Assembly (NCBI RefSeq): GCF_051903065.1
Contig: NZ_CP178438.1
Source of the DNA: Escherichia coli
GTDB lineage: Bacteria > Pseudomonadota > Gammaproteobacteria > Enterobacterales > Enterobacteriaceae
DNA: 64,000 nt
Reading direction: 5' to 3' (one strand)
The position numbers and the translations under genes are program-made. Positions within the stretch are counted from its first letter, which is position 1; every line of letters starts with the position of its first letter. The notes under the pieces were generated by a model. It was given only the letters and a program-made list of their open reading frames with translations, did not search any database and was not told the DNA's origin. Positions 24,576 to 25,115 of this stretch are shown piece after piece.

Positions 24576-24830
24576 TTAAAGCTGACCGACAGACTTTCTT
24601 AACCTGGTAATATCTCTCTTAGGTGACTCTCCAAACATCCGCAAATATTCCCGGCTGAAATGGGATAAGCTTTCGTAACCGACAGCATAGGCTGCTGTGG
24701 TGACATCGTAATGTTCATTCAGCATCGTTCGCCTGACTTCATTGAGACGTAGCCATTTCTGATACCGGAGTGGACTCATTCCCGCAAGCTGCCTGAAGTG
24801 TTGATGGAAAGAGGGCGTGCTCATTTGCAC
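24576..24830 (-). pseudogene. yneL: AraC-family regulator remnant (C-terminal HTH only)
   Basis: 84-aa ORF equal to an AraC HTH domain only; upstream frame is broken (overlapping out-of-frame ORF 24739-24996). Confidence 0.6.
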
Positions 24831-25115
24831 GCGGTTTACCAGCTTGAGTCTTCAACGCTGGGAAGATGCGGCAAACGGCAAATCTGCATACCAGCCAGCC
24901 TATATCCGGCATGCACAGGCCAATTATGAAAGAGGAGAGGCTTAAGTTCTGGAATCCTGAACGAATAACGACTACCGGAAAATCACTTCGTATCACTCAG
25001 ATACGATTTAACATAATATACATTATGCGCACCAACATAAACCAAGGGAGAATCTAGTCGTTGGCGGTCATGATTGACCTGCTCATTAACAACGACCAAA
25101 CCCCATATCTTACTC

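Follow-up and report, generated by a model that had tools for sequence, protein, structure and literature searches.

In the 64,000-nucleotide stretch of Escherichia coli DNA analysed here (the window), the 450-bp block that lies between an F9-type fimbrial operon and hipA and ends at dif is very probably the non-functional residue of a dif-adjacent module made up of a regulator gene, an alpha/beta-hydrolase gene and a DUF2255 gene, which was lost by deletions in place. Judged by its sequence relationships, the part of the block at 24576–24845 is the already annotated E. coli yneL pseudogene, which belongs to the AraC family by descent. From left to right, the block holds the 3′ flank of the regulator gene, regulator codons 304–216, hydrolase codons 226–245, a spacer and the start of DUF2255, and is followed by dif (Table 1).

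Table 1. Features in and around the relic block of the window
Feature	Position	Strand	Basis
fimA-like gene, F9-type fimbrial operon	23579–24142	−	RefSeq annotation of identical strain
Lineage-variable segment, the whole relic block, replaced in B2 strains	24556–25005		Window compared with Nissle-type and CCUG 73778
yneL-type pseudogene, C-terminal remnant (codons 216–304 and stop) of an AraC_N (PF06719) plus HTH_18 regulator	24576–24845	−	tblastn, RefSeq, K-12 counterpart
GTG ORF, 84 aa, inside the remnant	24576–24830	−	ORF list; Pfam HTH_18
Out-of-frame ORF, 85 aa, spurious, no part of the regulator	24739–24996	−	No family match and no homology to regulator N-terminus
Divergent alpha/beta-hydrolase relic, codons 226–245 (SLQRWEDAANGKSAYQPAY)	24845–24904	+	blastn, tblastn
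Short spacer	24905–24926		Mostly common to K-12 (alignment resumes at about 24910)
DUF2255 relic, ribosome-binding region and about the first 27 codons	about 24927–25005	+	blastn, tblastn, by-eye comparison
dif, XerC/XerD chromosome-dimer resolution site, XerD arm toward the relic	25006–25033	−	28/28 match to GGTGCGCATAATGTATATTATGTTAAAT
hipA, 440 aa	25116–26438	−	RefSeq annotation of identical strain

Identity and extent of the yneL remnant

In a 100%-identical strain, RefSeq annotates 24576–24845 as a pseudogene ('helix-turn-helix domain-containing protein; incomplete; missing N-terminus') and gives the order as a complete F9-type operon (ydeQ, ydeR, ydeS, usher, chaperone, fimA-like), the pseudogene and hipA-hipB. 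The K-12 annotation has the pseudogene yneL (b1506) at the same position, and DNA identity to K-12-type alleles is 97.6% over 210 bp. The 1-kb stretch 24200–25200 is 100% identical to strain ECNB21-M121, and some form of it is present in 5404 of 5426 complete E. coli genomes. The product of the 84-aa ORF matched Pfam HTH_18 with E = 4.2e-21 and 75.5 bits (cut-off 33.6) over profile positions 6–76 of 80, and also matched HTH_AraC (E = 9.5e-8), its best stretch there being the second motif only (residues 43–71); the 85-aa out-of-frame ORF gave nothing meaningful among Pfam families. The earlier note, which had recognized between the fimbrial operon and hipA a yneL-like remnant of an AraC-family regulator with only its C-terminal HTH domain in frame and an ORF of another frame upstream, is thus borne out by the HTH_18 match, the RefSeq annotation and K-12 b1506, and both ORFs are present.

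Regulator homology extends past the 84-aa ORF to 24845 and then covers 89 codons, 80 of which are identical to the Klebsiella protein (tblastn, E = 4e-56); the match at 24579–24845 corresponds to residues 216–304 and shows 88.6% identity to the copy found in an E. coli island (tblastn). An in-frame stop lies immediately upstream of 24845, and no other start leads to a longer protein, so that the condition under which the earlier note would have given up the remnant, a full-length ORF recoverable from one alternative start, does not hold. Residues 1–215 of the ~305-aa relatives had no match above noise in any frame of 24300–25400 (tblastn), and the distance from 24845 to the hipA stop (25116) is 270 bp, where the 215 missing codons would take about 645 bp. 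The absence of these residues from every upstream frame, together with the 270 bp available, indicates that the regulator was truncated by deletion and not by frameshift. The earlier description of a decayed regulator whose upstream part lies out of frame was therefore right about the decay but not about the frameshift, as the upstream ORF holds no regulator N-terminus and runs antisense to the hydrolase and DUF2255 relics.

The two complete HTH motifs of the ~100-aa AraC/XylS DNA-binding domain are not present in the remnant: it begins at residue 216 by homology, or at 221 if counted from the first start codon, and has no first helix of the first HTH, which starts at residue 204 in the intact protein. 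An N-terminal ligand-binding/dimerisation domain and an uninterrupted ORF were likewise not found in it. A natural family of HTH-only proteins of 120–150 aa had been suspected because the first protein searches gave only short proteins, but full-length copies exist. The short E. coli proteins proved to be ORF calls spanning differently frameshifted relic alleles, and the 128-aa Klebsiella proteins come from assemblies in which most called neighbour genes also appear fragmented. By eye, the in-frame translation upstream seemed to resemble the helix that precedes the HTH in Klebsiella, but neither tblastn nor blastn confirmed this.

An Rfam scan of 23000–27500 gave one sub-threshold chance match in the fimA-like gene and none at the remnant or the dif flank. 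On the other side of dif, the mechanically called hipA ORF has 459 aa, compared with 440 aa in RefSeq; the extra 19 codons (26439–26495, minus strand) overlap the end of hipB and are probably untranslated.

Hydrolase and DUF2255 relics upstream of the remnant

On its plus strand, 24845–24904 reads SLQRWEDAANGKSAYQPAY, which corresponds to hydrolase residues 226–245 with 18 of 20 identical (tblastn, E = 1.5e-10). In blastn, the same 60 bp matched the Klebsiella quasipneumoniae locus L004 (3207–3148) at 96.7% identity (E = 5.5e-23) and the E. coli locus L010 at 93.3%. DNA comparison also showed that 24564–24842 matches the regulator 3′ end in Klebsiella at 88.5% identity. From the junction that they share, the regulator fragment reads to the left and the hydrolase fragment to the right, like the intact divergent pair. 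This junction sits at a short imperfect repeat, CTCCTCAAC in the regulator and CCTCCAGC/TCTTCAGC in the hydrolase, and its sequence has the appearance that would be expected of a microhomology-mediated deletion. A repeat search found no direct repeats at the edges of the block 24556–25005.

The spacer at 24905–24926, which had no match in the Klebsiella locus, is probably a diverged remnant of the hydrolase–DUF2255 intergenic region. To its right, 24927–24969 matches the hydrolase–DUF2255 junction (blastn: L004 2722–2680 and L016 6056–6012), and the plus strand at 24947–25002 contains FWNPERIT and DYRKITSYHSD, aligned by tblastn with FWNPELLT and DDLKIAPYHPD of DUF2255. The DUF2255 start codon has changed from ATG to AAG (24944–24946), and the relic contains an internal indel. 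The 85-aa ORF (24739–24996, minus strand) lies antisense to both the hydrolase and the DUF2255 relics. A further patch at 25001–25032, first taken as a fourth module relic, turned out to be dif itself.

The dif site bounding the block

The 28-mer at 25006–25033 on the minus strand is identical to GGTGCGCATAATGTATATTATGTTAAAT at 28 of 28 positions, occurs once in the window and is the canonical E. coli dif site, with XerC arm, 6-bp centre and XerD arm; 0 matches were expected by chance and none was found in shuffled sequence. The exact 28-mer GGTGCGCATAATGTATATTATGTTAAAT is contained in PMC3025954. Furthermore, all six KOPS motifs (GGGNAGGG) in the window point to dif: the four to its left are on the plus strand and the two to its right on the minus strand, which suggests, within the limits of so small a sample, that the window spans the replication terminus and dimer-resolution point. 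The site is single-copy in nearly all of 5421 genomes, and in K-12 it lies in the 114-bp yneL-hipA spacer (bioRxiv 10.1101/2025.09.02.673814). It starts ten bases past the end coordinate (24996) of the feature delimited by the earlier note, which did not mention it, and the relic block ends exactly at it (25005/25006).

Conservation also extends over about 50 bp next to the XerC arm of dif, in the direction of hipA (25034–25084), with 76% identity over 79 bp including dif in Citrobacter youngae and 83% over 69 bp in Enterobacter vonholyi; this flank gave no Rfam match.

Intact modules beside dif in other genera

The closest full-length relatives of the remnant are ~305-aa proteins of Klebsiella, Enterobacter and Citrobacter, along with a copy in a minority of E. 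coli. The intact protein (304 aa) carries AraC_N (PF06719) at residues 31–182 (E = 1e-44) and an HTH region at 204–291, with an HTH_AraC match starting from 204. Its best similarities in NCBIfam were to RclR, RhaS, AndR and FtrA, none of which is a fimbrial regulator and none of which reached the cut-off. In Klebsiella, the intact regulator gene is divergent from the alpha/beta-hydrolase gene (365 aa), which is followed by the DUF2255 gene.

A pattern scan of one genome per species with an exact degenerate 29-mer conserved in the regulator returned six enterobacterial genomes and one unrelated MAG, with no Escherichia among the matches. The regulator–hydrolase pair is intact in Enterobacter sp. 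MGH 24, E. mori, E. vonholyi, C. youngae and K. michiganensis, and all of the intact or near-intact regulator copies examined (11/11) are paired with the hydrolase. In five loci (K. quasipneumoniae, K. pneumoniae, Enterobacter sp. MGH 24, E. vonholyi and C. youngae), dif adjoins the module. Its XerD arm faces the module in every case, and the hydrolase operon is transcribed toward dif; the relic in E. coli is placed and oriented in the same way. The K. quasipneumoniae locus has dif at 2014–2041, DUF2255 at 2334–2705, the hydrolase at 2786–3883 and the regulator extending to 5158, so that dif is 293 bp from the DUF2255 stop, and in Enterobacter sp. MGH 24 dif is 122 bp from the hydrolase stop.

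Several of these loci have been rearranged in ways of their own. K. pneumoniae ATCC 13883 (L020 1058–1317 against L016 3153–8454) carries an independent 5.3-kb deletion that removes a GAPDH-like gene, a GlxA-like gene, DUF2255, the hydrolase and regulator codons 1 to about 219, leaving an 84-codon regulator remnant almost identical in extent to that of E. coli. In E. vonholyi, a direct repeat of the final 114 bp of the intact regulator gene occurs 1.8 kb downstream (L022 5617–5730 and 7570–7683). Between the two copies lie a LysR regulator gene and a truncated MFS transporter gene, with no integrase present, an arrangement that looks like an insertion with target duplication. The hydrolase-to-dif interval of C. 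youngae (L019 3242–3969) contains, by reading of translations, two small ORFs resembling a higB/higA toxin–antitoxin pair and an ORF resembling a fragment of an IS200-type transposase. Toxin–antitoxin modules may thus recur around dif, as E. coli hipBA lies on its other side.

Variants among E. coli lineages

The locus has different deletion junctions in K-12, B and B2 strains, suggesting that erosion continued separately in each lineage. K-12 yneL keeps regulator codons ~235–304 (about 69 codons) with a 1-bp frameshift, and at its junction regulator codon ~235 is joined to the last hydrolase codons and their 3′ flank, a piece missing from the window. In B-type strains (BL21-derived; L009 2632–3114, protein P0102), the remnant and the C-terminal part of the fimA-like subunit form one reading frame as the result of a deletion; the fusion is annotated 'fimbrial protein', and the usher and chaperone genes there are also pseudogenes. 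Fusion of the yneL remnant to the fimA-like gene in B-type strains has also been described previously (PMC9308461).

The regulator remnant is absent from B2 strains such as Nissle, which keep hydrolase codons ~245–278 as a 100-bp relic followed by ~2.4 kb of other genes up to dif. In comparisons of the window with Nissle-type and CCUG 73778 sequences, homology breaks off at 24555 or 24540 and returns at 25006, and CCUG 73778 is a further-deleted form of the Nissle-type B2 arrangement. Every variant regains homology exactly at the dif edge. The 2.5-kb replacement in Nissle-type B2 (L011, reverse complement, 3991–6479) comprises the hydrolase relic, an SDR oxidoreductase gene, a partial LysR gene and a small acetylxylan esterase gene. 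In the window, the hydrolase piece ends at the same base at which the B2 piece begins (L004 ~3149).

A copy with intact hydrolase and AraC_N regulator is present in 86 of 5426 E. coli genomes, and the one such copy inspected lies at the integrase end of an argW/intS prophage-like island. In this copy, from E. coli BS90R-A (L010 9040–12484), a truncated iron-containing alcohol dehydrogenase gene lies between the intact hydrolase and the regulator. The sampled matches from the 5426 genomes fell into the 86 intact copies and short relics, with no intermediate, less-deleted module seen at the dif site and no complete genome seen to hold an intact module at dif.

Origin of the relic

Considering these results, we propose the following scenario. 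The E. coli ancestor would have carried an AraC_N-type regulator gene divergent from an alpha/beta-hydrolase gene and then a DUF2255 gene, immediately beside dif; we infer this more complete ancestor with the module at dif rather than observe it. In the window strain, three deletions would have reduced about 3 kb to 450 bp. One would have placed regulator codon 216 back-to-back with hydrolase codon 226 at the short imperfect repeat, a second would have removed the rest of the hydrolase gene, and a third would have removed DUF2255 from about codon 28 to the dif edge, keeping dif intact. The module copy would in this scenario have decayed in situ, with selection on dif presumably setting the right-hand limit of the deletions. 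The invariant divergent pairing suggests that the ancestral regulator most likely controlled the hydrolase–DUF2255 operon and not the F9 operon.

That the fragment was instead brought by a Xer-using mobile element integrating at dif (IMEX), or copied from the argW-island module, seems very improbable to us. The block does end exactly at the XerD arm of dif, the very point at which alleles change between E. coli lineages; similarity of the module between genera is unusually high; and 86 E. coli genomes hold an intact copy, the one inspected being in an argW island. E. coli CEA106S (H168), in which a Zot-family (filamentous phage) gene is annotated under a partial dif-flank match, could be read in the same direction. 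An IMEX would be bounded by dif and a second dif-like site, but at a threshold of at least 16 of 22 arm positions (chance expectation 0.08 per 10 kb) no second site flanks the block (window 20–30 kb) or the module in the loci with dif beside it. Other dif-like sites were one in C. youngae L019, beyond dif, and one in K. michiganensis L021, a locus without dif. No integrase or phage genes lie near the relic. Moreover, the relic matches the island copy (89%) about as well as it does Klebsiella (88.5%). By synonymous divergence, the island copy stands nearer to Klebsiella (dS 0.24) than to the relic (dS 0.33–0.41), and dS between the relic and the Klebsiella gene is 0.38–0.49. Purely as a matter of expectation, the divergence expressed by these dS values and by the 93–97% identity of the 60-bp hydrolase patch seems low for these genera. 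On this low cross-genus divergence (dS 0.24–0.49), the dif-adjacent module may itself have moved between genera instead of descending strictly vertically. In CEA106S, the zonular-occludens-toxin-family gene occurs at the partial dif-flank match in two places of the record, which suggests, as far as the annotation goes, a phage integrated at dif in that strain.

Regulatory role and residual function

Many fimbrial operons have AraC-type regulators, and the remnant and the fimA-like gene are on the same strand, with the remnant 434 bp upstream. The O157 counterpart ECs2114 has been called a 'putative regulator' of F9 (PMC7766294), and the earlier note had supposed past control of the adjacent fimbrial operon. 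It is nevertheless very improbable that the remnant is an F9 regulator decayed by frameshift, with its N-terminal part still out of frame upstream. Residues 1–215 are unmatched in any frame of 24846–25115, where 270 bp are available and ~645 bp needed, and the upstream DNA consists of the hydrolase and DUF2255 relics and dif. The intact relatives are always found with the hydrolase. Fimbrial genes were not seen next to any of them: the six loci whose flanks were read (L004, L005, L010, L013–L016) have none, and in the remaining loci a query with a fimA-like protein gave no match. The linkage of orthologues to fimbrial operons elsewhere that would mark a cis-encoded AraC-type fimbrial regulator was thus not found, and the nearest NCBIfam models, all below cut-off, do not describe fimbrial regulators. 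The supposed control of the fimbrial operon is therefore not upheld.

It is also very unlikely that the 84-aa ORF is a working HTH-only mini-regulator like MarA/SoxS, expressed by read-through or from a weak promoter and with F9 or hipBA as its target. The window strain and many others do keep the ORF open, and dN/dS among E. coli relic alleles is below 1. These values (0.39–0.58, against 0.11 between intact genes) indicate relaxed constraint on the relic alleles, but they rest on very small counts of 5–9 substitutions per class, and some residual constraint may persist. Microarray compilations have been reported to show yneL transcription (PMC9308461), a signal that read-through from hipBA could explain. 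Against such a protein, the first helix of HTH1 is absent, K-12-type alleles are frameshifted, B-type alleles are fused to the fimbrial subunit gene, and B2 strains are without the remnant. In the window allele, the conserved NEARRLML motif has moreover changed to NEVRRTML. A promoter scan of the minus strand at 24830–25115 found no sigma-70-like site, a terminator scan gave only a weak terminator-like hairpin (25006–24988), and a promoter fusion of the region upstream of ECs2114 showed minimal expression (PMC7766294). A different kind of use, in which the ~250-bp 3′ end of the regulator gene is kept because its DNA acts in cis next to dif, perhaps by shielding dif from transcription nearby or as part of the dif activity zone, is suggested by the independent deletions that spare this end (at codon 216 or ~235 in E. 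coli and about codon 220 in ATCC 13883) and by the extra 114-bp copy in E. vonholyi. In a wider form of this reading, there might be selection for the position that the module occupies, on the side of the XerD arm of dif, in several genera. We hold this reading to be just as unlikely as a mini-regulator; a 525-bp deletion taking in yneL left K-12 unaffected in an assay in which deletion of dif had an effect (bioRxiv 10.1101/2025.09.02.673814). On balance, and with this K-12 result taken into account, the remnant is probably not functional.

Significance and relation to known systems

YneL/ECs2114 is still counted among the uncharacterised transcription factors of E. coli (PMC4797297, PMC9308461). 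It should leave both that role and the role of F9 'putative regulator' (PMC7766294). An origin of yneL as the residue of a dif-adjacent regulator–hydrolase–DUF2255 module was not found stated in the literature searched. As an annotated pseudogene, the relic has little consequence for biology at large, though it illustrates selection on dif, since lineage-specific erosion of the flank stops exactly at the 28-bp site. Furthermore, an uncharacterised intact regulator–hydrolase–DUF2255 module next to dif is open to study in Klebsiella, Enterobacter and Citrobacter.

K-12 yneL (b1506) and O157 ECs2114/Z2199 occupy the same locus as the remnant (ydeQRS/F9 operon, yneL, dif, hipA, hipB) and have the same regulator C-terminus. 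K-12 differs from the window in having lost the fimA-like, chaperone and usher N-terminal genes, and the window allele differs from that of K-12 in keeping 89 codons and the 60-bp hydrolase piece. The intact AraC_N plus HTH_18 regulators, such as E. coli WP_000622442.1 of argW islands, show 88–90% amino acid identity to the remnant over residues 216–304; they keep the N-terminal domain, whereas the window copy has lost residues 1–215 and, as its sequence suggests, all function. The window's hydrolase and DUF2255 relics keep the relative order and orientation that the partner genes have in intact modules. With AraC-type fimbrial regulators of the Rns/CfaD/AggR class, the remnant shares the AraC-type HTH fold and a place next to a fimbrial operon, but no specific similarity was found among the NCBIfam models, and the NCBIfam matches, the AraC_N domain and the hydrolase linkage of its nearest relatives set it apart. 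The window has the identical 28 bp and the KOPS polarity switch of the textbook dif/XerCD site, dif being the functional neighbour that bounds the relic. The yneL/ECs2114 pseudogene and dif are both already known, and what is clarified here is the origin of the former, not a new kind of system.
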